Assembly: GCF_964204865.1 (NCBI RefSeq)
Contig: NC_135255.1
Coordinates: 20,336,001 to 20,400,000, forward strand
Direction of reading: 5' to 3'
DNA: 64,000 nt
From: Styela clava
Lineage: Eukaryota
Shown: piece after piece, positions 14,959 to 62,724 of the stretch
How positions within the stretch are numbered: the first letter of the stretch is position 1
Layout: the number at the start of each line of letters is the position of its first letter
The notes under the pieces: model-generated
Told to the model about the DNA's origin: nothing
Seen by the model: only the letters and a program-made list of their open reading frames with translations
Databases searched by the model: none
Program-made: the position numbers and the translations under genes

Positions 14959-14961
14959 ACG

Positions 14962-24500: not shown

Positions 24501-25049
24501 ATCATGAATTCTTACGGAAACGACAGTGTACGGTTGTTTTGATTGAAAAATAATTGTCAAGTTGCAAAGTCATAAAAATTTGCCTAAAAACAGGAACAGT
24601 TTAAATCAAAGCGAAATTAAATATCAATGCTTAATTCAGCTGAAAATGATGAACCGGCAAATTCAACAATTCAAGATGAGGAAGGTCCATATACTATCAT
24701 GTATTCTGCACTTTCACGACAAGACGAAGAAGGTAATAAAAAGAGAACCATATGTGGTAGACTGAATATTTTGACGACAAAAACATACCAGTGATAAAGA
24801 TTACAAATTAATAATTTAATGCGTTTACATAACGTGACATATATTAATGTTTTTAGAAGCATTTTGCATTGGCCTAAGCATCCTTGAAATCGCAGGTAGA
24901 AATATTTCGATACATCAATTACCATATATACTTTTATTTCAGATGTGAAGGAAAACTCAGAAATTAAAGAAGACGGGCACAAATACGACATGTATTCAGC
25001 CGTTGTAAGAAAGATAGAAAGAGGTGACAAAGAGACGATTCATGTGTGA
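21582..25049 (+). CDS. Gene 4: class B CUB-domain type-I membrane receptor (ITIM tail), apparently intact, 357 aa, 8 exons
   Basis: Exons 21582-21615, 22141-22395, 22669-22887, 23130-23231, 23671-23827, 24245-24351, 24640-24732, 24943-25049 give an open 1074-nt frame. TM LFLVSIPGFIGIILLAVTAIVFC; tail GPYTIMYSAL...KYDMYSAVV...ETIHV*. Confidence 0.88.
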
Positions 25050-28000
25050 TCACCCGACAACCACCCCCACCCGCCTCCTTTTCCATACGATGACGGATTG
25101 TTTATGGTTTAGACATCTGCCTTGCTGTACAGACCCTGATTTTCAAACCCACAGTGAAAGTGGGTTTACTGGTAATTATTAGACACGTTCTCTTAATTGC
25201 TGTTTGTCTTTGGAAGTCGTTATCATTTTGTAATTAGAATTGTATTCTGTGTAATTAACTACTGGTCAATTCGGATTCAAATCTAATATCCGAAGCTAAA
25301 AATTTATTTTTTCCGATTTTCCATCTAGTGCTATTTGCAAGGTTTCATACAACGAAATTAGTCAGGTAACGGTGCTCGGCACCAGACACCCTTCGTTTTT
25401 GTTCATTTATTCTAATGTTTCATATCAATATTGAACTAATGTTAATATTTAAATTAATATTAACAATTTTGCAACAATTTTATCGATTATTATTATATAC
25501 GTTTCGTACATGTGTCCCCAACTATTCTGGGTTCCTCTCTACTCATCCCCTTTCAATTGAATTAACTCAGCAAGGCAGATAATGATCAATGAATATTTTT
25601 ATTATTTTCTATCATTCAACAGCATATTATCAAAACTGTAATCTTATTATTTTAACTTTCACTGCTCGGACTGGAAATTTTCTCACATTTTGACATTATA
25701 TCTATCTTGCTGCATTCAAATAGGTTTTTGTTTTTTTTAAGATTCGAAACTTTCCCGCAGAGCAGTAAAGTAAGCAGAAAACGTTTGATGTAATTTGACA
25801 TGGGAGTTTTGCATATCTTAACAGCTGTTAGCATTACAAAATAAGTTTTGTCAAGTCAGTGTCAACTTAGACACGGTGAAAAAATTAATTAAGTCGATAA
25901 TGATGGCGAAATATAGTGATATTTAACGTTGCGCCAATTACAATTATTAAAATCCATGTGGATTTTTTGATGCTGGAAAACAACATTTTAAATTTAAACA
26001 AAATCTATGATCAAGATTTTTAAATGTGGACCGGCGACGGAATCCGGCTCCTAAAATACCGGGCACGTTATGAAGAATCTGCAAAAATTCGGTCCGCCAA
26101 ACCATATAGTTGCGGTGTGGGAGTTAAGTTTCTGTTTATCAGTTTTGATTATGGAATGAGTAAAATATAATAACGTTGGATATACATATATTACAATACA
26201 TATAGAAATATAATTACACTACTGGCGTCTTGTCCGAATATATTATATAAATAAAGACTATTCCAAAATCTGTCCTAAGTTTGTGCGCATATGAAGTTTT
26301 ACGCTGTATGTCCAGTTATTAAAAGATAAATGAGTGCCGTCACCTACCTACAATAATATTGAGTACTATATGCTGGATAACATAGTTACATAATACAAGG
26401 TACTCCACTGAAATGACCAAACATGTTTGAAATGTAAAACACGAACATATTTCCTTGTATATTGGAAAAACCGAGTGAGTGGGAAGCAAATGATAGATGA
26501 CATTTAAAGCTTCGAGTTTGTCATAAGTTGCGAATGTGGGAGGTGAATGATGCTTGGACAGAACACGATTGTGCCATAAAAACTGATGTTTATTAGGAGT
26601 TGCGAGTGTCGTTGGTTGAAGACATTGGGTATTCGAAGCAGTATAGAAATGCAGTAGACGCAGTAGAAAAATTAAATGCGAACGTTACAGAATATTCAAC
26701 TGAGGCTTATAAGTTGGACATGAGATTCTCAAGTGAGAGTCGATGAAAGGTTATTTATATCCGTTTGGAAATTGCGCAGATTCGGTTAAAATAAGCAAAA
26801 GCTCCAGAACTATTAAGTCAACAAAACGATGAGTTTGATAACATGTAGAATTACATAAATATATCTCCATCGCGAGGATGAACCTGTCTGCTATTGCATT
26901 ATCAGATTCAGAGTTATGGAGTCGAAGTTTGGCAAGGTTTAGCTAGAATTGGTGTCGTCTTTTAAAGCAGACCGGAGTTGGAATTTTGAATTATCCGAAG
27001 TCGAGATTTGGCATTTCATATTACCAATGGCGATAAACTGACATAGAAGTCAGAAAATTTTTTGTATAGAAGCCCCGGAAGCATCGAGTTTACTGATCGT
27101 TAACAGTCTGTTAGAGGAGACCTGCACACGCCAATGTCACACGTTTTGTTATCAAAATCCAAATTTTTCTAGAGTTTGAAGCTGGAGCTGGAGGCGACAG
27201 TTTTGAGTCGACGTCGATTGTAAGTTTTCTCCGGTCCCTAATCTGATGACACGAGGTAGTTTACAATTCCGGCAAACAGAAATGCAAAAGCATATATATT
27301 CACCAACGAATAAAGCAAAATGCCGTTTGGTTGTAGACTGGAAGGTGACGATAAGAAGCGTAGACGGCAATTTAAAATTCAATATTCACATTTATTACTA
27401 ATCACCCCAACAACAAACTGTATCCTTTCGGACCCTGAAACCTTCGTATTACACAGTAGATGAAGTATATTGTATGGGGCAGGGCATATAAGCCGTAAAG
27501 ACTGAGTCACATAACATACTGGAATAGAAGTTGAAATAGTTACAGGCAATGGGTTTTGGACATGTAACAATGTATCTAAAATGTAAAAAATAGTTTCAAC
27601 ACATGATGACGTTCTTGGTCACGTTGCAAAAAAAAGGATAAAGATGACATGGAATTGGGAATTTATGGTTATTCCACAACCCCAAACTTTTGTTTTGCAC
27701 GGGGATTGGGTTGTTACGTCTCCAAAAAAGTTCATTCCGTTTTAGAATATATACAAGAGATGGTTAGTTTTGACTTTGCAGTGCATTGATATATATGTAG
27801 TGAAAGCCTACAAGATCTTGTCATGGATTTGTTCGGACTTTTATATGTGGCTCATGACTAATCTGCCTCTACGCACAATATTTGCAAATCACCATCGACG
27901 TCAAAAAAGAACGAGTTATGTTTTTCTTATCTTTGTGAAATGAAAAACGGTCTATTGGCCTCGAATGGTGTTTTTGAATGGCAATCAGAAATGCGGAATC

Positions 28001-28125: not shown

Positions 28126-29217
28126 ATGGTTTGGTCGTTGATCGCCATTTTACTGCTTGGTAAGTAAAGTAGGGAAATACTGTATAAATAATCAATTGTA
28201 TTCCCAATTAAAGAATGAACTAACAAACGACGTAAACAGAAATTCCTTCCAGTCTTATCGTGTCTATGGTTTGGGTCGGATGTTTGCATTTACCACATTT
28301 CATAGATAAAATCTTGTCTTTCCCGAGAAGACGTAACGTTTAACAGGCTTTGACGCGAAGCGTAGCAATTTCCATGATTTCTTTTAACTAAGAACATATC
28401 ATTAAATTCTATTTACCTACGAGCCGTATGCTTCAAAGCAGTTTTTCGAGGTGGTGTGGGATTTTAGCCTTGCAATTTTCTGCTTTCTAGGAATGGTGAT
28501 CGGTATCAATGGTCAGTGTGATGAAAAGCAGATGTACATAACATCAGGAAATGGCGAAATAAGTACTCCGAATTATCCCGAGAAATACGCTTCAAAATAT
28601 CCTGATGAATATGGAAGATCGGCAAATTGCTCATGGAAATTCACTGCTACGGAAGGTTACGCTCTTGTGTTAACATTCACATATCAAAGACTTTATATCG
28701 TAGAAAACAAGGAAAAGAGATGTTTGGGATCGTACATGCTAACAATAAATAGCGGTAAGAGACATATGAATTGCATTTTTCCAATTTACTTATTCATGTT
28801 CCGTGTCAGATGAGATTTTCAACAAAAAATAAAATTTCAAAACTACTCACATTTCTCTACGACAAGGCTTTCTTAATATGAATGGGTAAAATTTATCAAC
28901 ACACCTAAGAAAAAGTAAAGAGCAAAATGACGGTGACTAGATTGGTAGCTCATGCGAAATATGTACTATTTAATACAGACATACAAGAATGTATGCGATA
29001 CGTCGATACAGCATATCCACTCACAGTGATTAAACCGATTGGATATTTCGACTCTATGTGCAGGGGAACACGGAATAAATCAAGTGTTCATGTTCAGTAT
29101 GTATCTGACGGACGAACATATACCGGTTCGGGAGCGACGACTACAGGAATGGGTTTTAAAATTCAGTACAAGTTTTCAAAATGCCCGACATTTGAAGGTA
29201 AACATATCGAATATTAG
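28126..29217 (+). CDS. Gene 5: signal peptide + CUB only (predicted secreted, ~175-178 aa) or truncated class B pseudogene
   Basis: Intact exons 28126-28159, 28491-28754, 28979-29197; no stalk exon. Read-through ends GKHIEY* at 29217; splicing to the AG at 29509 ends EKK*. Out-of-frame class B tail exons remain at 29510-29594 and 29805-29911. Confidence 0.6.
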
Positions 29218-32200
29218 TTTATATAACGTATAAAATTTTTCAAAAATATTGTCTGTAGGAACTAAATATGGAAATAAATACTCTATGGCCCAAGCTTCGT
29301 TAATTAATATTTCGAGCTCTTGTATTCGAAGCTTGAAAGGTTTTCATTAAGTCAAGCATGGTAGTAAGAAGAAGATAATTGTATCAAATTTCATTGTTGG
29401 ACACAAAGTAGACTCAATGGATTTTGTTAAATTCTTATCGTTGTTGTTGGGATGATTTTTATTGTTTGGAGAAATCGCGACTAATCGATTTCTAATTTTC
29501 TGTGCTTAGAGAAGAAATAAATCACTGGTCAATCTAAATGAGGAAGCTCCGTATACAATCATGTATTCCGCTCTTGCACGAAAAGAAGAAGAAGGTAATG
29601 AAAGAAAACCATATGTGATAGACTAAATATTTTGAGGACAAAAACATACTATTGATAAAGATTGTAAATGAATAATTTAAAAAGTGTGAATTGAATGCGG
29701 TTACATACAAGGACATATCGTTCAAAGTTTTGGTCTGAGCTCCCTTGAAATTGCAGAAATAAATATATTTAAGAAATCAATTAACATAAATACTTCTATT
29801 TCAGATATAAAGGAAAATGCAGCAATTGAGGAAGACGAGCATAAATACGACATGTATTCAGCCGTTGTACGAAAGACTGAGGGAGGTGACAAAGAGACGA
29901 TTCATATGTGATCACCCGACAGTTGTCCTGCTTTTTCATACGATTACTGCCTGCTTATGTTTTAGAAATCTGCCTTGCTGTTAAGACCTTGATCCTCAAA
30001 ATATAACCCAAGCTTATAGTTAAAGTGAGAAGGGGTACTGGGAAATATTAGACACGTTTGCTTAATTGTTGTTTGTCTTTGGCACTCGTGTTACTTTTGT
30101 AATTGGGGTTGTTTTTTTGTGATTAATTACAGGGCCAATCGCATTCAAATCTTTTATCATAAGCTAAAAAGATAATGATGACAAACTTCTATAGGATCTC
30201 TGAAACCTTTTGTTTCACCCACATTTTTTCCGATTTTCCATCTTACACTATCCGTGAGCTTTCGTCCATCGAAATAAGGCAGTTCACGGACTCGGCAGCA
30301 GTCCCCCCTCCGGTTTTGTTCATTTATTTCAATGTTTTATATTAGTATTGGACTCATTAATATTAACAATTTTTCAAGAATTTTATCGACTTACTACGTT
30401 TCGTATATGGGTTTCCCAACTATTTCTGGGTTCCTTTCTACTCATCCCCCTTTAATTGAATTAACTGAGCAAGGCAGATCACGATTCGTGAATATTTTCA
30501 TAATTATCTAATCATTCAACGTAATATGCTCGCAACTATAATCCTATTATTTTAACTTTCTCCGCTTGGGCTGAAACTTTTCTCACATTGTAATAATATT
30601 TGTCCTGCTGCATTCAAACTAGTCTTTGTATTTTCAACCTTCGAAATATTCCACACAGTTGTAAGGTGAACAGGAAAATGTTAGATGTAAATTAAAATGT
30701 AAATTTTGCCGTTAGCAAAACAAAATAAGTAGTCAAATTTGGCGGCGTGGAATAATAAACTAAGTCGTTAATGGTGGCGAAATATAGTGACATCTAAAAA
30801 TGCGCACAATCAGAATAGAATCCATGTGAATTCTCAGATGCTCGAATGAATTTTTTTTAAATTTAAGCAAAAATCATAATCGAGATTTCAAATGCGAGCC
30901 GGCGATCAAATTCGGTCTCCAAAATAAATTCGGTCTCATAACACTCACAACTTTTTGAAAAAAATGTGACCATTACCGTTCTGTTGCATTGACCAGTACT
31001 TTTCATCGCAAGCAATTCATTATAAGGATGGTTCATAACCCTCACGATTGTACTTCCGTTGCTTATTCCAAGATGTTTCAATATTTGATAACGATACGCG
31101 ATGTGATCGTTCGAAACCTGTAGAATGATATTGTGGTGTCGGAGTCGAATGTTTGGCTACCCTACTTCGAGATTCAAAGTCAAAATGTTTCTTTACCCGG
31201 AATCGATTGTAAATTTTCCCCGACTTCACATACCCGATCTGAGGACGCGGGAGGTAATTCACTATTTCATCAAACAAATATGCAAAATCGTATTCAATGA
31301 TATATAAAGTAGTTTTGTTATAGACTGGGAGGTGGCGATACAAAGCGTAGACAGTAATATACTTTCTCTTAATTACTAATCACCTTAGCATCAAACTCCC
31401 GGAAACATTAGCAATTCGTATGTCTTGTGGATCAGAACGTATTGTCCGTTAAGACTCAATCACATAACATACTGGAATATAGCAATACAATGCGAAATAG
31501 CGATACAGTGAGAAATGGGGGCGATGGCCTTCGAATACGAATATTCGATTTATGGTGAAGAGAAGAACGAAATTAGGCATTTTATTATTTTAAAAATTCA
31601 AATAGGAATAAAGTAAACGTAAAAAATAATCTCGGCGCCTGGTGAATTTATTGGTTAGGATGCTAACTTATACCTTGGGATAAATATGACACTGAATTAA
31701 TAATTACTGTGAATAATGGTTCATTCTGATTGTGGAATGAAAAAACCCACTAACTTTATTAACCATCCGTTTAACGTGATAAATTGCAACCTAGAATACA
31801 CTGAATCCAGGCAATTCGAAGTATTATAAAAATTAAAACAATTCGCACAAAATGACTATTCTGTCCCTGCAACCCAAGACGAAAATCTAATAATATTATA
31901 AACGATTTTATCATTGTAATTTTGTGTTTTAGGCTCGGTATCTGGTGGCAATGGTCAGTACAGTGGAAAGGAAATTAATATGACATCAGGAAACGGTGGA
32001 GTAAGTTCACCAAATTATCCCAACGAATACGGAAAATCAGCAAACTGCTCATGGAAATTCACTCACTCGGCGGGTTACGCTCTTGTGTTGACAATCACGT
32101 ATCAGAAGCTTTATATCGTAAAAAACGCGGAAAAGATATGTTTGGGATCGTACATGCTAACAATAAATAGCGGTAAGAGACATATGAATTGTCGTGTCCC

Positions 32201-35200
32201 AATTTACTTCATGTTCTATGTCAGATAATATTTTTCACAAAAAATGTTTCAAGTTTTAAAACTACCCATATTCCGCCACGGGAAGACTTTTCCTATATGA
32301 AAATTCACCATCGCACCAAATTAAAAAATGGTAGCGGTTTCATACGTGGTGAATAAAATGCATCAGCAAAATGACTGCGACTAGATTTGCGTAATCTTGC
32401 CTAAATAACATTTAATTCAGATACACAAGAATGTGAGAGGTACATTGATACCAGATATGCACTTGCAGTGATTGAAATCTTTGAATACTTTGACTCTATG
32501 TGCGACAGTGACGCAGATAACGGACCAAATGTTCATGTTCAGTATGTATCTGACGGACGAACATTTACCGGTTCGGGAGCGACGACTAAAGGAATGGGTT
32601 TTAAAATTCAGTACAAGTTTTCAAAATGCCCGACATTTGAAGGTAAACATATCGATAATTAGTTTATATAACGTATGAAATTTTTCAATAATATTGTCTG
32701 TAGGAACTAAATATGGAAATAAATACTCTATTTCATGGCCCAAGCTTCGTTAATTAATATTTCGAGCTCTTGTATTCGAAGCTTGAAAGGTTTTCATTAA
32801 GTCAAGCATGGTAGTAAGAAGGAGATAATTGTATCAAATTTCATTGTTGGACACAAAGTAGACTCAATGGATTTTGTTAAATTCTTATCGTTGTTGTTGG
32901 GATGATTTTTATTGTTTGGAGAAATCGCGACTAATCGATTTCTAATTTTCTGTGCTTAGAGAAGAAATAAATCACTGGTCAATCTAAATGAGGAAGCTCC
33001 GTATACAATCATGTATTCCGCTCTTGCACGAAAAGAAGAAGAAGGTAATAAAAGAAAACCATATGTGATAGACTAAATATTTTGAGGACAAAAACATACT
33101 ATTGATAAAGATTGCAAATGAATAATTTAAAAAGTGTGAATTGAATGCGGTTACATACAAGGACATATCGTTCAAAGTTTTGGTCTGAGCTCCCTTGAAA
33201 TTGCAGAAATAAATATATTTAAGAAATCAATTAACATAAATACTTCTATTTCAGATATAAAGGAAAATGCAGCAATTGAGGAAGACGAGCATAAATACGA
33301 CATGTATTCAGCCGTTGTACGAAAGACTGAGGGAGGTGACAAAGAGACGATTCATATGTGATCACCCGACAGTTGTCCTGCTTTTCATACGATTACTGCC
33401 TGCTTATGTTTTAGAAATCTGCCTTGCTGTTCAGACCTTGATTTTCAAAATATAACCCAAGCTTATAGTGAAAGTGAAAAGGGGTACTGGGAAATATTAG
33501 ACACGTTTGGTTAATTGTTGTTTGTTATTGGCACTCGTGTTACTTTTGTAATTGGGGTTGTTTTCTTTAGGATTAATTACAGGGCCAATCGCATTCAAAT
33601 CTTATGTCCTACAAGCTAAAAAGGTAATAATAACATATCTTCTATTGACTCTCTGAAACACTTTGCTTCACCCCACATTTTTTTCGATTTTCCATCTAAC
33701 ACTATCTGCCAGATTTCATTCATCGAAATAAGTCAGTTCACGGTGCTCGGCACCAGTACCCCCTCCGGTTTTGTTCATTTATTTCAATGTTTTATATTAG
33801 TATTAAACTAATATTAACAATTTTTCAAGAATTTAATCGACTTCCTACGTTTTGTATAAGTGTCTCTCAACTATTTCTGGGTTCCTTTTAATTGAATTGA
33901 CTGAGCAAGGCAGATAAAGATTCATGAATATTTTTATTATTTTCTATCATTCAACAGCGTATTATCGGAACTATAATCTTATTATTTTAACTTTCTCTGC
34001 TTGGGCTGAAACTTTTCTCTCATTGTAATAATATTTGTCTTGCTGCATTCAAACAAGACTTTGTATTTTTAGGCTTAGAAATTTCCCACACGGTTGCAAG
34101 GTGAGCAGGAAAATGTTAGATGTAAATTAAAATGTAAATTTTGCCGTTTGCATAACAAAATAAGTAGTTACCTTGGGCGGTGTGGAAAAATAAACTAAGT
34201 CGTTAATGGTGGCAAAATATAGTGACATGATGCTTCCCAGATGCTTAAAAGAATTTTTTTTTAATTTTAGCAAAAACCATAATCGAAATTTCAAATGCGA
34301 GTCGGCGACCAAATTTGGTCTCCAAAATACCTGTCTTGTTGTGCTTATAGGAAAAAAAGAATTTTAACAATTACTGTGATTAGATTCAATCCCAAAAAAC
34401 AATTCAAACTTCATAACACTCACTACTTTCTGAAGAAAATGTAACCATTACCGTTGTTGTATTGACCAGTACTTTTCATCGCAAGCAATTCATTATAAGG
34501 ATGGTTCATAACCCTCACGATTGTACTTCCGTTGCCCATTCCAAGATGTTTCAATATTTGATAACGATACGCGCTGTGATCGTTCGAAACCTGTAGAATG
34601 ATATTGTGGTGTCGGAGTCGAATGTTTGGCTACCCTACTTCGAGATTCAAAGTCAAAATGTTTCTTTACCCGGAATCGATTGTAAATTTTCCCCGACTTC
34701 ACATACCCGATCTGAGGACGCGGGAGGTAATTCACTATTTCATCAAACAAATATGCAAAATCGTATTTAATGATATATAAAGTAGTTTTGTTATAGACTG
34801 GGAGGTGACGATACAAAGCGTAGACAGTAATATACTTTCTCTTAATTACTAATCACCTTAGCATCAAACTCCCGGAAACATTAGCAATTCGTATGTCTTG
34901 TGGATCAGAACGTATTGTCCGTTAAGACTCAATCACATAACATACTGGAATATAGCAATACAATGCGAAATAGCGATACAGTGAGAAATGGGGGCGATGG
35001 CCTTCGAATACGAATATTCGATTTACGGTGAAGAGAAGAACGAAATTAGGCATTTTAATATTTTAAAAATTCAAATAGGAATAAAGTAAACGTAAAATAT
35101 AATTTTGGCGCCTGGTGACTTTATTGGTTAGGATGCTAACTTATACCTTAAGCTAAATATGACACTGAATTAATAATTACTGTGAATAATGGTTCATTCT

Positions 35201-35223
35201 GATTGTGGAATGAAAAAACCCAC
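29086..35223 (+). repeat. Direct duplication with ~3.45-kb offset (29086-31750 vs 32531-35223)
   Basis: Near-identical sequence, also visible as duplicated spurious ORFs (29534/32984, 31020/34493, 31125/34598). Confidence 0.9.
31933..33361 (+). pseudogene. Gene 6: signal-exon-less CUB cassette with orphan class B tail exons
   Basis: Open CUB exons 31933-32172 and 32421-32642; first Cys changed to Tyr (CAG TAC). I found no signal exon between gene 5 and 31933, and no stalk exon. Tail exons at 32960-33044 and 33255-33361. Confidence 0.7.
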
Positions 35224-35798
35224 AATTCTTTGTTTGGGCTGTTTTGCTCAGATCAACCACGAAGACATTACAATTGTAGTTGTGCCTGATACTTTACTGA
35301 AAAGGTTATCAAATTTTAGAATAAAAACAAGACTTTGTTTTGACAAGACAAGTTTTGTTTTGACTGTGCAGCGCACTAATATGTAGTGGAAGCCTATGGG
35401 ATCCGGTCATGGATTTGTTCACCTTTTCTATATGGATCATGACTGATCTGTCTCTATACGCGACAGATGGGCAAATTACCATTGACGTCAAATACAAACA
35501 AGGCATGTTTTCTTAATCTTTGTAAATTGATGATTAGAAAATACAGTCTACCTGGCATAGGGGAAGTTATAGGTTTGTGAGTTTTTATAGCAAAATGAAC
35601 ATTAAGTAGAGCAGTTGGCAGAAATAGTCGAAACATTACATTCGGATTTGAATCGACAAAAAAGGGGATAACGGTACATATCTTGTTTATATCCTGATCG
35701 TTCGTTTTTACTATCTTCTGTCTCAAAATATGTTTCTCACGTTACGTTTATTTTGCTTCTCAACTAGGTCAAAAAAGATTATTCAGTCTAAGGTTAAC

Positions 35799-38690
35799 AT
35801 GGTTTGGTCATTGATCGCCATCTTGCTTTTAGGTGAGTAAAGTACGGAATTGAATTAATAATAATTTATCGTATTATTACCAATAAAAAAACGAATTCCG
35901 TAGACAGAAATTGCTTTCAGGTTTATCATGTTTGTAGTCGGGAAATTGGTATTCATTGTATTTCATGGATAAATCTAAGCCCTACCTGGGATTGTGTATT
36001 TTGCTAAAATATCTTCACCACCATACATTGGAATTTTCACCATTTCTGCGTCATTTGGTTTCGTATTTGAACAAAACAAGAACATTGAATTCTATTTACC
36101 AACAAGACGTTTGCCTCAATCAGTTGGTCACGAAATTTTTGTATATGTTGCATTTCTCTATATGTTGGAAACTGTGGCCTATTGCAATGGTCAGTGTGCC
36201 GGAGAGGAGATGAACATAACATCAGGAGACGGCGTAATAAGTTCCCCAAATAATCGCGACAAATACGTAAAATCAGCAATCTGCTCATGGAATTTCACTT
36301 CTTCGGAAGGTTACGCTTTCGAGTTAACAATCACGTACCAGAGGCTTTATATTATTGAAAACTCAAACAAGCTGTGCTTAGGATCGTACAGCATCACTAT
36401 AAACAACGGTTTGTGAAATAACTGTAAATTATCATTTTCTGATCTAATTAAATCATGCTCTATTTTAGTTTGTTAGAATTTTTCGATATTTAAACATCGG
36501 TGTATATTTTTTATCATATCGACGGGAAAGGGTGATAACTTAGTTTCTAACGTTTCTTGTCCGACTCTAGCCGACGAGGTCAGGAATCAAATCAGGATCA
36601 AAAATGATGTGTTATACTATTAAAATTCAGATACACAAGAATGTACGAGATACGTTAATGCAAAATATTCAATTTCATTGATTGGATCATTTGAATATTT
36701 CGATTCTATGTGCTGTGGAGAAGCAGGAAACGGAGCAAGTGTCCGTATTCAGTATATATCAGATGGACGAACATATACCGGTTCTAACACAGTGATAACC
36801 ATCATATGGGTTTCAGAATCCAGAAGTTATCACAATGCCCCGGATTTACAGGTAAACACGCTAAATATTGTTTATCTATGAATAGGGCGGGGCGTTTTCG
36901 AATACCCGATGATTTCAGAATCGAATCTCAAATACTTGGAAGATATGAAATTGTATGTAACTTTCTTACTATTTTAGGTCATCCAGACACATAAATTACT
37001 AAAAACATAGATAACATCACTAACAATAAAAAACACATTTTCATCAATACCCCAATACAGAAAAAGTTCGAAAATTTTCTCTAAACCGATTCGAATAAGT
37101 TACTATTCGATTCGGATATTCGATTCAAAATGCCCAGCCTTATCTATGAATTATATACGTTTTCTAAACAATGCATATTAATAATGCACACTTATGATAA
37201 TTTTTAAGACCGAACTAATGGAGAGATTCAAATCATCTCAAGACATTTTTTACTGATTTAGTTTCACAAAAAGTGATGAGAAGTTCTTTGTGTCACGTCA
37301 TAGAAATAACCTCATTTCAAGTTTTGCCTTTGATTCCTGTTAAAACTAATACCAATCCGGTACAAGGTGTGCAGGAAATAAATCAGTATCATTTATTTTC
37401 ATTTTAGCAATCATCTACCCCGATACAACTAATGCTCCTACTACCACACAATATCCGGTTCATCATACTACTGACGCAGCCACTACGGTTGAAACATTAC
37501 GCAATACTGCAAAGTCGGATCCGAACACTCATACAACCCCTGAGACAACTGGGATCGAAAACGCGAATGAATTAATCACAACGTCTGACAAGTCCACATT
37601 GAAAACTACCAAGGGTAAGTGTTCGAGTTTTGTCATTTCATCACTGGACTGTAAGATAAAAATACCAGTACATATAATTTAAAACCAATTAAATTATCAT
37701 GCATATACTTGGTATTGCCATTTTTTTTAATCCGCGAGATGGTGTGCTATCTACTACGTGGACGTTTTTGAATTGATGAACATTTTCACTTGTTATACAC
37801 ATTATTTATTTTCACCAGGAACAATCAACACAAACATTGATCGAACAACTTTAATCGTCCTCCTCTCCATACCAGAATTTATCTTCGTTTTACTCATGGT
37901 CGTGGCCGGGATTGTATTCTACAAGAAAAAAACGGTGAGCATTCTTCATGCTCAGAAAAATAACCGTATACCACATTGAACTAACCAATAAATATTGTAT
38001 TATTTTATTTCCCGATAAAATCATTACGTTCTCTGTTATTTCATGACATGACGATGCGTGTTTGCAATCGGCACCGGATTCTCGATGTTTTTGTTTTGTT
38101 GATTTGATGTTATATACTTAATTTTGTCAAAGATCCCAACGTCCGGAACATGCCAACGCAGCACAAGGGACTGTTCCTAATTCTACTGAGATGGGAAACA
38201 TCGGTTCTACGGGGCACAACGGAACGTCAGGTAACCTATTTGTATTTTCAAATGCAGCATTGAGATATGATAGAAAGTTACACTTTCTTTGCTGAAACAT
38301 TTTAAAAAATGGGGTTTCATTGTTATTTTTGGTTTTCAGCGCTTGTCATTTGAATACTAGTTTGTTTTTCGTCTTAGAGTACATGTTTTTGATTTCAGCA
38401 ATGTCCGGCGTATATTTCGCATTTTTAACTGACGTGAATAACTGATTTAATATCAATTGATGTTTCTGGAATAGTAAGGTACTAGATTAAAACATAACTA
38501 TCTTAATACAAAGCTAATGAAATTCAGAACATATTCAGATACCGATGGCTACGAAGAAGTTCAAGCTGCGCCATCTAGCGGATATGAGGAGATACGACAA
38601 GCAACCGATGGATACGAAAAAGTGCAAATAAGGGCAGCAACTCAGGAACAAGAGGCCGGATATAAAGCCACGTATGCGAACATTGCATGA
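35799..38690 (+). pseudogene. Gene 7: class A CUB receptor, probable pseudogene
   Basis: Signal exon 35799-35832; CUB exon 1 (to 36408) has its acceptor AG changed to GG at ~36167; CUB exon 2 36631-36851 is 221 nt (frameshift); stalk 37408-37614; TM 37819-37934 with an extra A in a homopolymer; tail exons 38133-38230 and 38539-38690 intact. Confidence 0.8.
36883..37142. mobile_element. hAT-like MITE in intron 3 of gene 7
   Basis: Ends TAGGGCGGGGCGTTTT...AAAATGCCCAGCCTTA; perfect 8-bp TSD TCTATGAA (36875-36882, 37143-37150). Confidence 0.82.
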
Positions 38691-41025: not shown

Positions 41026-44000
41026 ATGGTTTGGTCGTTGATTGCCATCTTTATTTTAGGTGAGTTAAGTTACCAACTATTAATAATTAATTGTATTCTA
41101 ACTAAGCAATAAACTAACAAACAACGTTGACACAAATCGCTTCCATGCTTCTCATATTTCTGTGTAGAAAGTTTGCATTTCTCACATTTCATCAAAAGCT
41201 TTTGTCAATAAATTTTAGTTATACTGAAATAGTGTAATTTGTCAAAATAAATCCATCGCTAAGCATTGAATATTTTACTCCATATGGTATTGTATTAAAC
41301 TAACCGAAAGGATATCTCTGAATTCTATCCACCTATGAGAATTATGCCCCAAAACAGTTTAACCACTCCCGTCGCAAAAACGTTTTGACATTGTACTTTT
41401 CCACTTCCTAGGAACTGTAGTCGTCAGCAATGGTCAGTGTGATGAAAAGGATATGAACATAACATCAGGAAACGGCGAAATAAGTTCTCCAAATAATCTG
41501 AACGAATACGGGAGAACAGCAAATTGCTCGTGGAATTTCACTCCTTCGGAAGGTTACGCTCTCGTGTTAACAATCACGTATCAAAGGCTTTATATAGTCG
41601 CTCCACCAGGCAGGAAGATATGTTTGGGATCGTATGTGCTCTCCATAAACAACGGTTAGTTGATATAGGAATCTGAACTTACTGTAGAAAAATTCAGTAG
41701 CTTGGATTTAAATAAAATCTAATAATAAAATTGGTTTCTAATTCATTTTAAGTACATTTGCTAAGGTAGATTTATTCTTTACTTTAAATTCCTTAACTCT
41801 GAAACTGCTACGTAGTCTTATACCTATACGTGGGTATGGCAGGCCAGATTCTGCTTGCCACGATAAAACTAAATTTGATGCACAGGAAGAAAATGGATGG
41901 TACATGTGCCGCTGCTTTTAGTGAAGTATTCTCTGTGAATCGGAAAGCGAATCGATAGGTTGGAATAGTCGATAAAACAGTAATCGACATTATACAGGAA
42001 TCGGCCGATATTGCCAATGTTTCTGAATGTCATAAAAGTACTCATTCGAAATAGCCTCTTCTGCTTACCAGTATCGCGCGATGGCAAAATGATGTGTTCA
42101 TTTTACAATGATTGTCATCATGATAAAATTTAATTCAGATGCACAAGATTGTTGGAGATATTTAGATGCCAAGTATTCACATGCACTGACTAACCCTTTC
42201 GAATATTTCTGCGCTGGAGACGCAAGGAATAAATCGAGTGTTCATGTTCAGTATATATCGGACGGGCGAACATATACTGGTTCGGAGAATGTGATTACAG
42301 CAGCAATGGGTTTCAGCATCCAATACAAGTTTTCACAATGTTCCACAGTTACAGGTAAGTCTTGAACAATAAATATGAAATATTTCAATCAAAGTCACTA
42401 AACTTATTTATATAAGTTCTTTAAACGAAGACGAGTAATCATGCACACGCATAAAGATTTTTGTGCATGGAATTATTTGAAAGAACGAATCTTCTCCATT
42501 CGGTGTTTCCTACTGATTTACATATTGATTTACACTCGCGAACATTGAGTGTGCTAGATGTGGCAAGTGTTTGAAAGCGTAAGACAAAAAATGACCCTTG
42601 ATTCTAGTGAAAACCATTGGCTATTAGAAACGAAGTGTATAAGTGGAAAAATACAACATAAATTATTCATTTTAATGCAGCACGCGCTCACCTGGATACA
42701 ACTAATGCTCCTACTACCACACACTATCCGTCTTATCCCACCACTGACGTAGTCAACACGGTTAAAATATCACCCAATACTGCAAATTTGGAAGTGGTTA
42801 CTCGTATTAACGCTAAGACAACAGGTTTTAAAATCAGACCAGAAATAGGCATCACGTCGGATCGTTCAACAATCACCCTATCGCAAAATACTATGGGTAA
42901 CTATGAATTTTGTACGTAATATTTAACCATCGGATGATAAAACCCATCCTGGGTAAAAATATCCCATTTTAGTACATGGTGTCGTTGCTTTTCTAAGTTT
43001 GTCCGAATATTCTTTTGCGTTCTATATTTAATCTGCTAATTGTTAGATGACGTGCTGTGTACTGAGTGATCAGTTATGGACATTCAGTCTTTTTTTTCAT
43101 CCCACTGCATAAAACTGCATTCGAAATTGATTGAGCGATTCAAAGGTTACTATATACAGTACTTGTAACAGGAACAGTCAGCATATGCGCTGATAGACAT
43201 TCGAGCACAAGTGGGATGAGTCAAACAACTCTAATACTCCTCCTCTCCATACCGGAATTTATCTTTGTTTTACTCATGATCGTGGCTGGGATTGCATTCT
43301 ACAGAAAAAGACGGTCCGTATTATTTATCATTGGAATTATAAATCCTAATCTATCCTAAAGCTTAATGATCCGATATTTATTTCTTCGCCAACCGATACT
43401 AACAAAATATGAAACGATATGTGAATTCCTAAATTTTCTTAGAAACCAAAACTGGTTACTGGGCAATGGCACACGGGATCAAAAAGTACTCAGGACAAGA
43501 TATTTCATAAATTTGCAACAATGATGAATCTTCTCGTAGCCAGAGTGTGTGTTAGTTACGTTATAATTTTTTCATGAACGTACTAATTAATCATGAAGTA
43601 TGATCTTAGAAAAGGCGTGGGTCACGCTTTATGAATCGTAGGTACGTGACGCACGACTAATAAAACTAGTAGTCGAGTTACGTCTTCAATTCAATATTAC
43701 ACTTTTCAGAACAACAATATTAGTACTACATACATGGATTAACCTAGGTATAGTTAGAATGTTTTTGATGAGGGTTGGTATTACAATTATTTACATCCTC
43801 TGTACGCGGTGCTGTAATCTCTGTCCAAAATTAAACAAATCATCCTAAACTTCGAGCGCTTGTAAACTTGCTACTCCTCCCACATTGTCGACATTTGTAT
43901 CTTATAAAAATATTTTAAGGACCCCCCTAAAGACGAATCTGATGTGATTTAATATACCCAATATTTTCAAAGATCACAGCGCTCAGACCATGTCAACACA

Positions 44001-44599
44001 GCACAAGGGACTGTTCCTAATTCTACTGAGATGGGAAACATCAGTTCTAAGAGACAAAACGGAACGTCAGGTAATCTGTTAGTAATTTCAAATACAGCAT
44101 TGGGATATACTGAAAAGTTGCACTTTTCGTATTGAACCGATTTAAAATCTCAAGGTGTTTTTGTTATTTTCGTTCAACGCTGTTATTGTCGTGTTTGTGT
44201 ATGTCAGTGGAACAACTCTCATGTTAGTGGTTGGTTTTCCGTCCCAGATTAGATATTTTCGGATTCCAGCAATATCCGGCTCATTTTGAACTATCAATAT
44301 TTGTTAATAGAACTCATTCGAACCCACATGCATGTAACTAGATCAGTTACTAACTTTTCTGACAAGGTAGGGTACTAAGGTCGATACAGTACTATCCTAC
44401 TACAACAAAGAATAGGAATTTTAAAATAACATATAGAATATATTCAGGTACCGATGGCTACGAAGAAGTTCAAGTCGGGCCATCTGGTGAATATGAAGAG
44501 ATACGACAAGCAACTGATGGATACGAGAAAGTGCAAATCGGGGCAACAGATCAGGAACAAGAAAGTGGATATAAAGCCACGTATGTGAACGTTGCATAA
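41026..44599 (+). CDS. Gene 8: class A CUB-domain type-I membrane receptor, apparently intact, 366 aa, 7 exons
   Basis: Exons 41026-41059, 41412-41654, 42139-42354, 42681-42896, 43172-43313, 43973-44070, 44448-44599 give an open 1101-nt frame. TM SIPEF; tail GYEEVQVGPSGEYEEIRQATDGYEKV...TYVNVA*. Confidence 0.88.
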
Positions 44600-45965
44600 A
44601 AAATCGAAAGACAAACATTGTGCAACAATACAGTAAAAGATTTCTTTCATCGACCGACTTCCTAACTACAAAGCTTTTCTATTACTCACTTCAGTGTGGA
44701 ATTTTAAACGACTTCACAGGGTTGGGTGGTAACTGACTCCAATGACCGCATGGTCGTATCGTTGCCACCCAGTATGTACCGAGAACTTTTATATTTCAAT
44801 CTAATTTCATTTTGTTGTGTATATGTTTTCTGGTGGACAAACAAAATAAACTTTCGCATACGTATGAATTTGTCGTCGTAAAATTATTTCATGTTTGAAC
44901 CGAAATGTTTTAAAAATTGTTTGAAAAATTAGTATCACATTCAAATATTTAAATAATTTTGACCAAAGAAAACTTCCATTGAAATGAAAAGCTATTCAAA
45001 TTTGCTTTATGTTTGATCCATTTACGTATTAGTTCTATTAATATTTGCTAATTATAAAGTTTTATACGATTTTGACAGTCTTTCAAATATTTCACGGGTA
45101 TAAGTAAGTTGCTGTTATCATCTCGGTGGTCGTTTGTAAATATCCGCTTGATGCATTTTAATTAATAATAGAAACAATGCTTCGCTTAACCTGTATTAAA
45201 TGAACTTTGTTGGACTCAAATGAACTTTGAGAATGGGAAAACTTCTTTTTCATATTTTATCTATTTTACTCATTATTATCAACTATACAAAATCAGGCTT
45301 CATTTTAGAAAGACCAAATCAAAGAAAAATAATCTTAGAATGAGCTAAGTCAATCTCAATCGAGACAGTCCAAAGCAAGTAAGAGCAATTTCGTTCACTC
45401 TTAGCAAGACTATGGCTTCAAACTGTGGTGTCTAAATTGGATTGGCACTTTACGTATATGGATTAAACTAAACCCCTTGCTTACACAGTTATTGATGTTC
45501 AAGAGCCGGTTTCCGGTTCGGAGTAGCCTAACGAATAGGCCAAGCAGACCAAAAAACAATAGGTTTCATTCTGTGACATTTATTTATCAATTAAACATAA
45601 GTTTCTGCAACCAGTGAATGTTATCACGTAACTCTTACTTGTAAGAATTTGCATGTGTATTATATATTCATAAATACTTATCGATTGAACTTTAAGGGTG
45701 AATCATTTGGCGACGTCGGGGTTTCGAATATCAGACCAGGGATATGAATACGCATTGCTATGGCGCCACTTTGTACATTTTCAATTTGTGGTGTTTTGAC
45801 GATTTTCGCTCCGAACAAGTTCGTGTATAAGCAGTAATTTGATATTCAAGATACTATATTTCAGAGGACCACAAGCTTCCCATTCACCATAAAGATCATA
45901 AATATGGGTGGCAATGTTTCGCAAAAAACCTTTGGTGGGTCACGGCGTCAACCCTTACGGGTTGA
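41760..45965 (+). repeat. Segmental duplication copy 2 (paralog ~10470-14958)
   Basis: Near-identical to the gene 2 region from intron 2 onward; boundaries approximate. Confidence 0.85.
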
Positions 45966-52497: not shown

Positions 52498-55400
52498 ATG
52501 ATTTGGTTATTGATCGTTATCTTACTTTTAGGTGAGTAAAGTAAGCTACACTTGTTAAACAACAAATTTTATTTTACGTGCAATAAGCGAACGACGTAAA
52601 CAAAAATTGCTTTTATGCCGCTCTAATGTCTGATCAACAAAAACATATAACCAATTTACCTACGATCTATGTTTCAAAGCAGTTGATCAAATATAAGGAT
52701 CGTTCAGGCGCCAAGCAGTTTGATCTTTGTCATTTCTGCTTTCTAGGAACAGTAGCCGGTAGCAATGGTCAGTGTGATGGAAAGAAGATGAACTTAACAT
52801 TAGGAAATGGTATAATAAGTTCTCCAAATTATCCCGAGGAATACGGAAAATCAGCAAACTGCGCATGGGATTTCAATCCTTTGGAAGGTTATACTCTCGA
52901 ATTAACAATCACGTATCAAAGACTTTATATATCTGTAACAGAAACAAGCGTGAAGATTTGCTTGGGGTCTTACCTTCTTTCCATAAGTAACGGTTAGTGA
53001 AATAACAATAATTTAAATAAAAAAAGTTTTCTCTGTAGAAGTTGTACGATCCAAGATTTTATTTTGATTCAGCTTAACCCTGGGACCCCAGGAAAGCATA
53101 TTCATTCTTGATTTCGTGGTAATAGTTATCGAAACTTTACTATTCCACTTATTTCTCACTTTTAATCAAATGTGGGCAGTATTAAATATTATATATATAT
53201 ATAATACGGTGAGATGTACGTTGGTGTAAAGTATTCATATTAATTAAACCAATTTAAATCAACGTGTGGCGGAAACATAGTTCAGCCGCTGCCAAATAAA
53301 AAAATACTTGAACGGAAAGTACAGTCACCATTATATATTATGTATAACAAAATTTAAAGTGATAAAATTCAATTCAGATACTCAGGAATGTAGCAGATAT
53401 ATTGATAAAAACTATCTCATGACATTGATTGGAGTTCAGCATTTTGACTATTTCGACTCTATGTGTGGCGAGAACGCAGAAAATAAGCCAAGTGTTCATG
53501 TTCAGTATATGTCAGATGGACGAATATATACCGGTACTAATACAGTGATAACCAAATCAATGGGATTTAGTATCCAGTACAAGTTTTCAGAATGCTACAC
53601 GACTGCCGGTAATTAATCTTTGCAACTACATAAAATTACTTTGATGAATATCCTGAATTGTAATTTCGAAACCACGATATAAATACGTACCAATTTTTTT
53701 TTTATTTGAATGAAGACATATCCGAAACTAAAAAAAATGCAGTATTAAGCAATTGATTGCATTACCAAATATACTCAACCTTGGTAAAATCATTTTCTCA
53801 GAAACAACAACTGAATATGTCCAAACGAGTATTTTTGAAGGAAGCTCTAACATAGAACAAACAATTACGAATTTTGAGGACAACCGTACTCTTTCTACTA
53901 TAGGTCAGTAGGTTTCTCATAAACGTTTGCTACGAAAACATCAATCGAAACTAGACAACTACCCAACAAAAAAGCCTTTTATTTCTAGTACAAAAGGTGA
54001 ACCTGTTGATAACATGAAGTTGATTAAATATCGCGGAACTTCGAAACCTTGGGAGTTCAGGATTGGAAAATCATTATTTAACAATCATTATCTATGTTTT
54101 ATATTTTAGGCCTGAATTAGTCAGCAACAAAAATTGATATGTCTTCTAATAAATTAATTAAACCCTGGCCCTGGGTTAGGTGGCCAATATGGGGGTTGAT
54201 ATCAAGGTTCGTCATCTATTGGTACAGGGTTTTATTAACAAGGAAGATTAAATATAAAACAGATTATGAATCAAATAATTTATTTATCGGGAAATGATGT
54301 ATCAACCCGAAGCACTTGGGATTATTTTACAAGCTATTAAAGTTTATGTAAATAAACATAGAAGTTTCGCATTTCTTTATTGTTCCATGTCATGCTAAAA
54401 CAAGAAAAAAATCATAAAAAAATCTTTATATTTTTTTTTCGAAATCGTGCACTGACTCTAACAAAACCGATGTGATTAAAGCAGTTTTACTATTGAGTTT
54501 GTTATAAGAAAACTCATACTGAATCAATGGCCGTGTCGTACTACAAAACTAATATGAGCCCCCTTAGCAATATTATTCCTTATTACAATACTAATATCAT
54601 CACCTCTAGCACTCTTATTTCCTATTATATCAGACACAGCTGGAGAAACTGATGGCGCCAATTCAGATGGAATAGGTGACACTGCAAAGCTTTTCCTCGT
54701 TTCTATCTCTGGATTTATTGGTATCATAATACTTGTGGCGACTGTAATCGTATTCTGCAGGAAGAGAGGGTATTTAACTCATACTGATTACTTCCTTGAT
54801 TAGCAATTAATTATTTGTCTTGGTTATTTACGTATAGAAATACCTATAGGTCAAAAGAAGCCTAAGCAAAACGGATATATTGCATGGGTGTAATGACCTA
54901 GTGGTTATGGCGTCGGACTGTAATCGCCGTTGATATGACATCTCATATACAACCGTACACAAGCCATCTAGTAACTTGGACAGACAATCCCGAATCATTA
55001 TTATTATCGTGACTGCTTACTTAAAGCCGTGTTCGCAGTGAAAGTCCAAAAACGACTACAACGGCTGCATTCATCCAAGATAGGATTTTATGAAAGCGTT
55101 GTATAAGGTCAAGTCGAATATAATTAAAAGAAGAAAATATAATTCTTGAATATCATCGTGATAATATATGAATATTTATTAACAGGGACATATATCAAAA
55201 AAACAAAAATGTCAAACAGGACAATGTAGGCGGAAATAAGATGGAAAATGCTGAATCTCCAATCCAAGAACCGGACCAAGACACTGCTACGGGTAAGAAT
55301 TTATTAAATAGATCGTGATACGGGAACACATCCCAGGTTGACTAAAATCTTATATCTGAAACTTCCTCTTTAATTTTGAAAACGTTTCACTCTCGAAAGG

Positions 55401-55960
55401 AAGCACTGTGTACAAAAAACTAAGCTTTATAAGCCATGAACAATTTGAATTTCTGCGGAAACGATAGTGTACAATTGTTTTGATTTAAAAAAAATTGTCA
55501 AGTTGAAAAGTCATGAAAATTAAATATCAATATTTAATTCAGCTGAAAATGATGAACCGGCAAATTTAACAATTCAAGATGAGGAAGCTCCGTATACTAT
55601 CATGTATTCTGCCCTTACACGACAAGACGAAGAAGGTGATAAAAAGAGAACCATATGCGGTAGACTAAATATTTTGACGACAAAAACATAACAGTTATGA
55701 AGATTCCAAATTAATACCGGTATTTTAATACGTTTATATTCCGTGACATATAATTCAAAGTTTTTAGAAGCATTTTACATTGGCCCAGACATCCTTAAAA
55801 TTGTAGGAAGAACTATTCCGAGAAATCAATTATCTTAGGTACTTATATTTCAGATGTAAAGGAAAATTCAGCAATTGAGGAAGACGAGCAGAAACACGAC
55901 ATGTATTCTGTCGTTGTACGAAAGACTGGAGGAGGTGACAAAGAGACGATTCATGTGTGA
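52498..55960 (+). CDS. Gene 9: class B CUB-domain type-I membrane receptor (ITIM tail), apparently intact, 351 aa, 8 exons
   Basis: Exons 52498-52531, 52747-52992, 53378-53608, 53802-53903, 54634-54769, 55186-55292, 55543-55635, 55854-55960 give an open 1056-nt frame. TM LFLVSISGFIGIIILVATVIVFC; tail APYTIMYSAL...HDMYSVVV...ETIHV*. Confidence 0.88.
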
Positions 55961-57061
55961 TCACCCGACAGTTGTCCAACTTTGCCCAGATTGTTTATGG
56001 TTTAAAAATCTGCCTTGATGTTCATACCTTTGTTTTCAAAAATACAACCCAAACCTATAGTGAAACTAAAAAGAGGTACTGGATTGTTGTTTGTTATTCG
56101 CAGTAGTGTTTATTTCGTAATTGGGATGCTTCCTCTATAATTGATTTCCTATTGCATTCAAATCTTATATCCTAATTAGCTAATAATAACATATCTTCTG
56201 TAGTCTCTTTGTTGCACCACGCATTTTCACGGTTTTGAAAACATTGCTTTTTCATCTTCCATTATTTGCGAACGCCTAACGAAAATAAGTATTTGGTGCT
56301 TGATACCAGTACCCCGTCGTTTATTTATTTTAATATATTATTGGATTATTGTATAAATTCAACGAATTTGCAAGAATTTAATCGACTTCATACGTTTCGT
56401 ATATGTGCTCTCAACTACTTCTGTAGATCATTGTCTAATCGTTTCCTTTTTGATGAATTAGCGAGCAAGGGAAATAACGATTCATGAATAGTTTTATTGT
56501 TCCATAGCATTCAACAACATATTCTCGAATCTATAATTTTATTTTGTTACCTTTCCTTCCTTGGACTGGGCGTTTTCTCACATTTTATTAATAATATTTG
56601 TCTTGCTGTATTCAAACAAGTCTTGTTTTTACAAGCTTCGAAACTGTCAAGCAGGAAAACGTAAGATTTAAATTGACACAGACGTTTTGCATACCTATAC
56701 ACCAATTAGCAACAAATTACAAAATCAAGTAGTACACCTTTATGGTAGTAGATCCATGGTAATCCTTTATATAACGCCAATGGTTTAGCTGGAGCAATTG
56801 CATCACGCCAAATACCTTCATGAAAATTGCCAATGAGGTCGCGTGTTTCTTAGTTTTAAAATCTCGATCTGTTAGTGTTTAGACCAGGGGTGGGCACGGT
56901 TTTTGAACCACGGACAAACATTTTGGAAGTGGAAAACAATAAGCTATCGTGCAAACTACACCAATGACTTGTTTTTTTTATCTCTCAAATTTCGCGTGGG
57001 AATTGTATATATGTTGTTTTTAGAAAACATTAACTGTTTTCATAGCCTGATGTCTGAGCGG

Positions 57062-57401
57062 TAGTTGCACGCAAACGTCACAGTTATTTGGCTTAGACAA
57101 GGTTTGCTTTAGCAAAGCAATAGTTGAGAATTTGCATTAAGAAGAGTTACAGTATGGACATGGCCACTAACATATCACGAGTTGAGCGCCCAATTAGAAC
57201 TTTGACAAAATGATATACATGTTTGTAGTTTTAGTTGCACGCAAACGTCACAGTTATTTGGCTTAGACAAGGTTTGCTTTAGCAAAGCAATAGTTGAGAA
57301 TTTGCATTAAGAAGAGTTACAGTATGGACATGGCCACTAACATATCACGAGTTGAGCGCCCAATTAGAACTTTGACAAAATAATATACATGTTTGTAGTT
57401 T
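57062..57401 (+). repeat. 170-bp tandem duplication
   Basis: TAGTTGCACGCAAACGTCACAG... starts at 57062 and again at 57232; single copy in the paralogous region near 9090-9260. Confidence 0.85.
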
Positions 57402-57641
57402 TCGAGCGAAATTAATATTCAATATAAAAGTTGGCAGAAATAATTGAAAGATTGCCAAGACGCCATTGTTGACAGTTATCGAGGATAGTATTACTGAATA
57501 GTTACACAATAAAAATGTCGCCGTTGAGTGACAATTAGAGATGTGCAATCAGACTATATTATGTCTCATTTGATTTGAATCAAATAATTTCGATATTAAT
57601 TTTTAGTTCTGAACCAGGACGAAAAAATTAGTTTAGTTAAC

Positions 57642-57675
57642 ATGGTTTGGTCGTTGATCGCCATCTTAATTCTAG
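57642..57675 (+). CDS. Gene 10: signal-peptide exon only (remainder outside the window or lost)
   Basis: ATG GTT TGG TCG TTG ATC GCC ATC TTA ATT CTA G|GTAAG = MVWSLIAILILG, the same 34-nt exon as in the other copies; flanks match those of gene 2. Confidence 0.75.
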
Positions 57676-57738
57676 GTAAGTAAAGCAAGTAACAATAATT
57701 AACTGTACTTAAACTATACAATAAAATAACAAACGACG

Positions 57739-57953
57739 TGTAAGGTGGTGTGTATACACGCACAACTATATTGCATTTGTAGACTTTATTCACATTCGAA
57801 ACAGAACACATTCCAGATAGATAAACTTAAAACAGTTAATGCACACAGTACCAACTCATAACAGCTAATGTGACACAGTACACGTGATAAATACCGAACT
57901 TAGAAGTCACCTTCAGACATGAACGGACACGGGTCAAAGGTCACTATATTACA
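57739..57953 (-). repeat. 3' LTR
   Basis: 215 bp; differs from 62510-62724 at one position that I could find; preceded on the minus strand by purine tract GGAGGGA (57954-57960). Confidence 0.95.
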
Positions 57954-58144
57954 TCCCTCCAAACCTTAATAAAAAAAAACACAAAAATTGACATCGATGA
58001 ACGACAAACCATATGAAGACTTGATATCAAAATTTTAGGATTCAGCACACAAACTTTTAGTTCAAGTCTTCACACAGATAAATATCGATATCAACTTCAT
58101 GAAATACAATGCAAAACACAGTACACATTAGTTTCAAAATACAG

Positions 58145-62272: not shown

Positions 62273-62495
62273 CTTCTACATGTGGGTTAAAAACTTGTAA
62301 ACAGCCTAGACCACTTAGGAATGCAGTATAGAATTCTGGAATGTTTCTTAGCTTTTGAAACTGTACAACACTTAGTTGACTCTTGACTTCCGTTGACCAC
62401 TACTTCACACCAAGTTCCGTAGGTCTTTCCCGTATTCGAGGTTGCACTTAGCTTCCTTTACCACTTAGGTTACCGTTATCTATTACCGTTGCTTT

Positions 62496-62508
62496 ATCCT
62501 CGTCGCCA
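62496..62508 (-). promoter_or_regulatory. Primer-binding site, complementary to tRNA-Ser(GCU) 3' end
   Basis: Minus strand TGGCGACGAGGAT, 1 nt inside the 5' LTR; complementary to ...AUCCUCGUCGCCA, which I recall as the metazoan tRNA-Ser(GCU) 3' end. Confidence 0.8.
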
Positions 62509-62509
62509 A

Positions 62510-62724
62510 TGTAAGGTGGTGTGTATACACGCACAACTATATTGCATTTGTAGACTTTATTCACATTCGAAACAGAACACATTCCAGATAGATAAACTTA
62601 AAACAGTTAATGCACACAGTACCAACTCATAACAGCTAATGTGACACAGTACACGTGATAAGTACCGAACTTAGAAGTCACCTTCAGACATGAACGGACA
62701 CGGGTCAAAGGTCACTATATTACA
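62510..62724 (-). repeat. 5' LTR
   Basis: 215-bp direct repeat of 57739-57953, followed by TSD CGACG (62725-62729). Confidence 0.95.

Follow-up and report, generated by a model that had tools for sequence, protein, structure and literature searches.

Paralogues with nested shared back parts in a predicted activating/inhibitory CUB receptor cluster of Styela clava

The stretch examined is a 64-kb window of Styela clava contig C6 (C6:20336001–20400000), taken together with 150 kb of neighbouring DNA; the 214 kb contain not a single N. Positions below are those of the window, and the genes described in it all lie on the forward strand. Exon searches of this region recovered 20 copies of one gene, laid out as a signal-peptide exon, two CUB exons, a Thr-rich stalk, a membrane exon and tail exons, the last of these falling mainly into two types, A and B. 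A genome search for CUB exon 1 added one copy near the cluster and four on other contigs (C5:5185554–5235121 and C17:3079989–3080222), and 21 of the 25 matches are clustered within 190 kb of contig C6. Gene 8 (41026–44599; database model P0001) has seven exons, encodes 366 residues and carries a type A tail, with the signal peptide at 41026–41059, the CUB domain at 41412–41654 and 42139–42354, the Thr-rich stalk at 42681–42896, the membrane helix at 43172–43313 and the tyrosine-motif tail at 43973–44070 and 44448–44599. Gene 2 (9563–13557; P0002) has the same layout, 365 residues and a type A tail, with CUB exon 1 at 9986–10225 and CUB exon 2 at 11087–11302. Both genes encode single-CUB, single-pass membrane proteins, which the database annotates as uncharacterised Styela clava proteins.

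The other copies in the window are in varied states of preservation. Gene 1 (3375–7747) has a type B tail (IMYSAL) and a stop codon inside CUB exon 2. Gene 3 (14955–17683) is a broken type A copy, lacking promoter and start codon at the 14959/14962 junction and carrying a stop in CUB exon 1; its remnant of exon 1 and intron 1 is nearest to that of gene 8 (82%). Gene 4 (21580–25050, ends approximate) and gene 9 (52499–55960) both carry type B tails and correspond to the intact models P0009 and P0161, respectively. Genes 5 and 6 (28128–33370, ends approximate) consist of CUB exons and remnants of type B tail exons, and no membrane exon was found for them by exon searches; they form a duplicated unit at 28460–35223 (85%, flank 96%) without stalk or membrane exons, and since the database model P0071 stops after the CUB domain, a secreted or decoy form of their product is possible. 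Gene 7 (35798–38690, start approximate) has a type A tail and is apparently broken in CUB exon 2. Gene 10 is a remnant (56943–62915) comprising upstream DNA, exon 1 (57642–57675) and intron 1, with no exons found beyond exon 1.

The Pfam CUB model (PF00431) matches CUB exon 1 of gene 2 (E = 1.6e-8, 35.3 bits) and of gene 8 (E = 2.3e-4, 21.9 bits), both above the cut-off of 21.4 bits. In a fold search the two exons together form one CUB domain over ~140 columns (best E = 8.6e-5, 14–18% identity), and the nearest folds are the CUB domains of complement proteases (C1r/C1s/MASP CUB2), neuropilin and spermadhesin; the structure model is of low confidence, with a mean pLDDT of 45 and ~60–75 in the strands. 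Compared with known CUB proteins, the arrangement differs in having one long, divergent CUB domain on a Thr-rich stalk, followed by a tail with tyrosine motifs. No homologue from outside Styela was among the 7 proteins returned by sequence search and the 12 returned by profile search, all labelled Styela clava, in searches that need shared short words and may miss distant tunicate relatives. A profile search of representatives was dominated by multi-CUB proteins, and the 10 single-stretch full-length matches among the best 150 all carry that label.

A type A tail follows 10 of the 20 copies and a type B tail 9, one copy being assigned to neither. Type A tails read YEEV-x7-YEEI-x6-YEKV with a terminal YxNV, and in genes 2 and 8 they comprise three ITAM-spaced YxxV/I motifs together with YEEI and, at the terminus, YVNV. 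Pairs of YxxV/I at this spacing (6–8) occur in all five type A proteins tested, and in none of them did any of 2000 shuffles reach such pairs; the strict ITAM (YxxL/I twice) was found in 0 of 14 proteins. Type B tails hold a second motif, YSAV or YSVV, and five of the six type B proteins contain an ITIM consensus in the form IMYSAL/I, the sixth having FMYSAL; the definition used, I/L/V/S-x-Y-x-x-I/L/V, is that of the ITIM passage in PMC12582321. A single ITIM match also appears in 3–14% of shuffled short tails; the type B match, reached by 6–10% of shuffles, is weak alone, though conserved across paralogues, and the two long type A tails match the pattern too, four times each. Ectodomain and tail classes are uncoupled, each ectodomain subfamily being found with type A and type B tails. 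Broken-looking copies make up at least 6 of the 10 type A and at least 3 of the 9 type B copies, one of each type having been checked in part. Two proteins on the other CUB subfamily, P0157 and P0099, have a type A tail expanded by internal repeats to nine YxxV/L motifs, and a third type of tail, containing YEEI and YENL, is found in P0124 and P0160.

YEEI suits the Src SH2 domain and YVNV suits Grb2, and YxxV/L/I is readable as an endocytosis signal too. The membrane helices differ as well (43200–43210 and paralogues), type A having mostly Glu (SIPEF) and type B Gly (SIPGF); the Glu, which is reminiscent of acidic residues in ITAM adaptors, is present in P0001–P0003 and absent from type B, P0099 and P0157. 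With respect to transcription, a type B gene is spliced across three exons at depth 21 in run X11, presumed RNA (L002:3780–5551). In the same run neither gene 2 nor gene 8 showed a spliced transcript; it gave short gene 2 pieces at depth 2–4, one of which reads through an intron.

The relationship between genes 2 and 8 is layered, and identity climbs in steps of ~73%, 82%, 90% and 98% from front to back. The initial annotation had described the two as differing in the upstream region, intron 1 and most of CUB exon 1, and as near-identical from intron 2 through the 3′ flank. The differing front is borne out, inasmuch as the upstream DNA and intron 1 align at background level only (87 of 316 intron 1 columns different, ~27.5%) and the quoted peptides NYPKEYGRS..ILETSGKLC and NNLNEYGRT..IVAPPGRKIC are present in CUB exon 1 of genes 2 and 8, respectively, an exon that is 16% different overall and 11.6% different over its last 43 bases. 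The claimed extent of near-identity is too wide: 33 of 182 columns are different in the 5′ part of intron 2, 28 of 278 in its 3′ part, and 36 (6.9%) in the final 520 columns of the flank. Near-identity begins only inside CUB exon 2, at position 11174 of gene 2 and 42226 of gene 8, and this step is beyond chance (2ΔLL 54.9, reached by 0 of 500 shuffles, maximum 18.5).

Three gene 2/8 strata can be delimited by position. The oldest that is specific to this pair, 41615–41860, covers the end of CUB exon 1 and 5′ intron 2, is ~18% different, and in its intron part aligns with no other paralogue. It is followed by a stratum at 41861–42225 (gene 2 10799–11173) with 37 of 364 columns different (10%), which contains six amino-acid changes. 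The youngest tract, placed by a change-point fit, spans 42226–45420 on the gene 8 side (right edge approximate) and 11174–14411 on the gene 2 side, where 61 of 3186 columns differ (1.9%). The shared stretch stops at 14959, where a deletion joins the gene 2 flank to the headless exon 1 of gene 3. CUB exon 2 has nine base differences, all within its first 87 bases, and its last 129 bases are without difference, as the annotation's identical second half implied; its codon counts were likewise correct (S/W, R/K, Y/H, T/A, K/N and G/R, and two synonymous codons), and a third synonymous step is hidden in the two-base R/K codon. The youngest step sits directly past the family's most variable loop.

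Trees of the separate segments, from which genes without the exon concerned were omitted, are incongruent. In the tree of the exon-1 region, built from 11 copies, the partner of gene 2 is gene 10 (84% identical) and that of gene 8 is gene 4 (80%), and uniting genes 2 and 8 in one clade is rejected (p-AU 0.0008). In that of exon 3, i.e., CUB exon 2 (12 copies), genes 2 and 8 are sisters with 100/100 support, and they are again sisters in exons 5–7. The front-end lineages differ accordingly, gene 8 belonging with genes 4 (its sister there) and 3, and gene 2, whose back end is related to gene 8, having its closest front-end relative in the gene 10 remnant. The CUB exon 1 tree gave little resolution and neither supports nor rejects sisterhood of genes 2 and 8 (p-AU 0.48), so that it pins down neither where the first junction lies nor which way the transfer went. 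In a GENECONV-like scan of 66 pairs, restricted as were the dN/dS counts to the gene 2/8-like CUB subfamily (11–13 of the 20 copies), genes 2 and 8 share a 69-site identical run (global p = 0.0013); further tracts link genes 5 and 6 (global p = 0.001) and one other pair (0.027). The type B gene 1 and an orphan exon linked to a type A tail are 97% alike over a half-exon, at 88 kb distance and on opposite strands, the type A-linked fragment being broken. Taken together, the incongruent segment trees, the identical run, the nested strata and a sequencing depth that fits three copies support an exchange between paralogues. The half-domain swap proposed initially is supported in so far as it entails exchange, but it was not one clean swap: at least three overlapping layers are present.

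The upstream DNA and intron 1 of gene 2 track those of gene 10 over ~1 kb, which makes gene 2 the likelier hybrid; with the body of gene 10 lost, the direction of transfer is a deduction rather than an observation. P0003, to which other sources give the gene number of gene 2, has the exon 1 of gene 2, a sequence without a second match among the 10 exon 1s translated, and a body that is not encoded in the region, where its CUB exons are only 60–79% alike to anything. This protein, known as protein only, is consistent with a different occupant of the gene 2 position on another haplotype.

Whether genes 2 and 8 are separate was addressed with run X1, from the same source sample as the assembly, using contig depth, a rough guide and no copy number, and the letters at differing sites. 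The gene 2 front is covered by exact contigs at depths of 28 and 33, two-allele control contigs lie at 45–60 and the shared back end at 65–75. Modelling with a single-copy depth of 31 gives 44–50 and random letters for two copies, and 75–81 and a majority of gene 8 letters for three. The letters of the back end are those of gene 8 at each of the 37 listed sites and, over all 50 differing sites, at ~39; these sites are non-independent. The data fit three copies in the source sample, gene 2 once and gene 8 twice, such that the gene 2 front is present on one haplotype only; the two-allele state of gene 8 rests on contigs placed on gene 2 coordinates, together with one gene 8-type intron 2 contig at depth 57. 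Run X5 was tried for the presence or absence of genes 2 and 8 in another animal and set aside, as almost no reads covered the introns and the unique parts of controls were likewise bare.

The possibility that the assembler placed two alleles in tandem finds an argument in the core difference of 1.9%, which is no larger than the allelic difference within the sample (0.8–1.8%), and in the single-haplotype occurrence of the gene 2 front. We regard it as highly unlikely, given that gene 8 on both haplotypes together with gene 2 agrees with both depth and majority letters, that five non-duplicated genes and no gap lie between the two, and that strata of 10–18% difference flank the core. Another alternative is a single half-domain swap after which the first half of CUB exon 2 came under positive selection, corresponding to the rapid amino-acid change that the initial annotation had placed after the exchange. 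The clustering of all nine exon differences in those 87 bases agrees with it; the six changes span residues 97–121, within the most variable loop (residues 95–124), a low-confidence part of the model, and by this location they could matter for binding. The six changes nevertheless lie 5′ of the youngest tract, and the first part of the exon is no denser in differences (9 of 86 bases) than the adjoining intron (28 of 278; Fisher p = 1.0); dN is 0.093 against a dS of 0.19 (dN/dS 0.5), with p = 0.90 for an excess of replacements. CUB exon 1 has a dN/dS of 0.18 between genes 2 and 8. Across paralogues the medians are 0.33 and 0.39 for the two CUB exons, pairwise counting gave a ratio above 1 in none of 66 and 55 pairs, and no 12-codon window exceeds 0.73 save a 5-codon end at 1.04, the counts being small and pairwise methods missing site-level selection. 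Positive selection on the CUB exons was thus not detected by pairwise and windowed counting. A hint in the opposite direction comes from the allele-like type A pair P0157/P0099, in which CUB exon 1 accounts for 15 of the 34 differences, as against 0 of 8 and 2 of 9 in two type B pairs. On balance this alternative is quite improbable, and we infer that what still differs in the first two thirds of the CUB domain is older divergence that escaped overwriting and not a selected burst. That exchange creates new specificities, with the CUB domain as a candidate binding part, is plausible.

The reading we favour, with a probability of about 0.65, is that genes 2 and 8 are separate paralogues sharing nested back parts, likely through conversion or unequal crossing-over, within a predicted activating/inhibitory CUB receptor cluster. 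An early exchange would have joined a promoter and exon 1 of gene 10 type to a body of gene 8 type, gene 2 being the likelier hybrid, and later exchanges would have re-homogenised shorter stretches, the last one 3.2 kb. As judged from their motifs, type A proteins such as those of genes 2 and 8 may recruit Src/Syk-type kinases and Grb2, and type B proteins, with IMYSAL and the second YSAV, SHP phosphatases. The CUB domain is predicted to recognise a ligand that is foreign or lies on a cell surface, and through exchange binding ends and signalling ends would be combined anew over and over. The mosaic could also be neutral turnover of a tandem array, the proteins being developmental, adhesion or gamete-recognition receptors with tyrosine motifs for sorting or growth signalling, as would agree with dN/dS below 1 throughout, the double reading of YxxV/L/I, the many broken copies and nearest folds that belong to complement proteases, neuropilin and spermadhesins alike. 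Ascidian blood cells, however, do use ITAM proteins, according to the relevant passage of PMC5465252, and the two conserved, mutually exclusive tail types match activating and inhibitory patterns. Both tails are moreover mixed with both ectodomain subfamilies in one lineage-restricted cluster, which is the layout of an immune receptor complex, so that we consider this alternative unlikely.

Vertebrate paired receptors include CEACAM, Siglec, CD300 and LILR, and the coupling of ITIM/ITAM tails to ectodomains of Ig and C-type lectin type has happened repeatedly. Those covered in PMC3210942 (KLRC/NKG2, Ly49 and PIR) share with the Styela cluster the clustering, activating and inhibitory members, gene conversion and broken copies; in them homogenisation covers the ligand-binding part of opposing partners, whereas in genes 2 and 8 the reverse is seen, the tail being shared. 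Their ectodomains are of Ig or C-type lectin type, in contrast to the CUB domain here, which is combined with ITAM-like motifs in the receptor's own tail. Near-identical binding domains in opposing partners, by which paired receptors are recognised, were not found, the best CUB exon identity between intact type A and type B copies being ~80–85%; genes 2 and 8 are not an opposing pair, as their tails are the same. Within tunicates, the passages on Botryllus schlosseri fester/FcoR (PMC12582321, PMC12065747) describe clusters of type I membrane proteins with ITIM or hemITAM motifs, in which intergenic recombination mixes ectodomains and intracellular parts; FF1 and FF3 share 91% at the C-terminal end against 37% elsewhere, a polarity also seen in genes 2 and 8. 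These Botryllus genes have Ig and sushi domains, cognate gene pairs and a shown allorecognition role, according to the same passages, whereas the Styela cluster has a single CUB domain, crossover points inside the binding domain and a function predicted from motifs. No partner family resembling the fester/FcoR cognate pairs was seen for it, and it is not a fester/FcoR member, since its ectodomain is CUB rather than Ig-like plus sushi. A hemocyte membrane glycoprotein from Halocynthia roretzi, a solitary ascidian, likened here by description only, has two ITAMs and acts in phagocytosis and aggregation, and the passage describes no ITIM counterpart or cluster (PMC5465252).

The gene 2/8 mosaic alone is ordinary concerted evolution, and the cluster matters more. 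Its mode of action is probably that of vertebrate paired receptors and of Botryllus fester/FcoR, with another ectodomain. Only tentatively, and at somewhat less than even odds, do we go further and propose a previously undescribed, independently evolved CUB-based activating/inhibitory recognition complex with haplotype-variable hybrid activating genes, whose products are candidate hemocyte-contact or self/non-self receptors. No report of a CUB-based ITIM/ITAM set or of this Styela family was found in the literature outside subscription journals. If these proteins signal as their motifs predict, balanced recognition would have arisen independently once more, in the closest invertebrate relatives of vertebrates, and the cluster would offer named genes as candidates for the allogeneic reactions of blood cells in solitary ascidians.

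Several repeats and insertions lie within or beside these genes. Intron 2 of gene 2 carries an inverted-repeat insertion of ~240 bases, a MITE-like high-copy element at 10556–10798 with 15-base terminal inverted repeats, which gene 8 lacks and which is covered at very high depth in four of four runs, and also a partial exon-end duplication, in which the end of CUB exon 1 recurs in degenerate form at 10309–10370. Intron 1 of gene 10 is interrupted by an LTR element (57739–62724) with 215-base terminal repeats and a 5-base target duplication; its insertion is young, as judged from this duplication and the 99.5% identity of the terminal repeats. The upstream DNA of gene 10 contains a 171-base tandem duplication (57062–57402, 99.4% identical), and directly past the remnant lies a large imperfect inverted repeat, foldback-like, from 63167 to ~65118.
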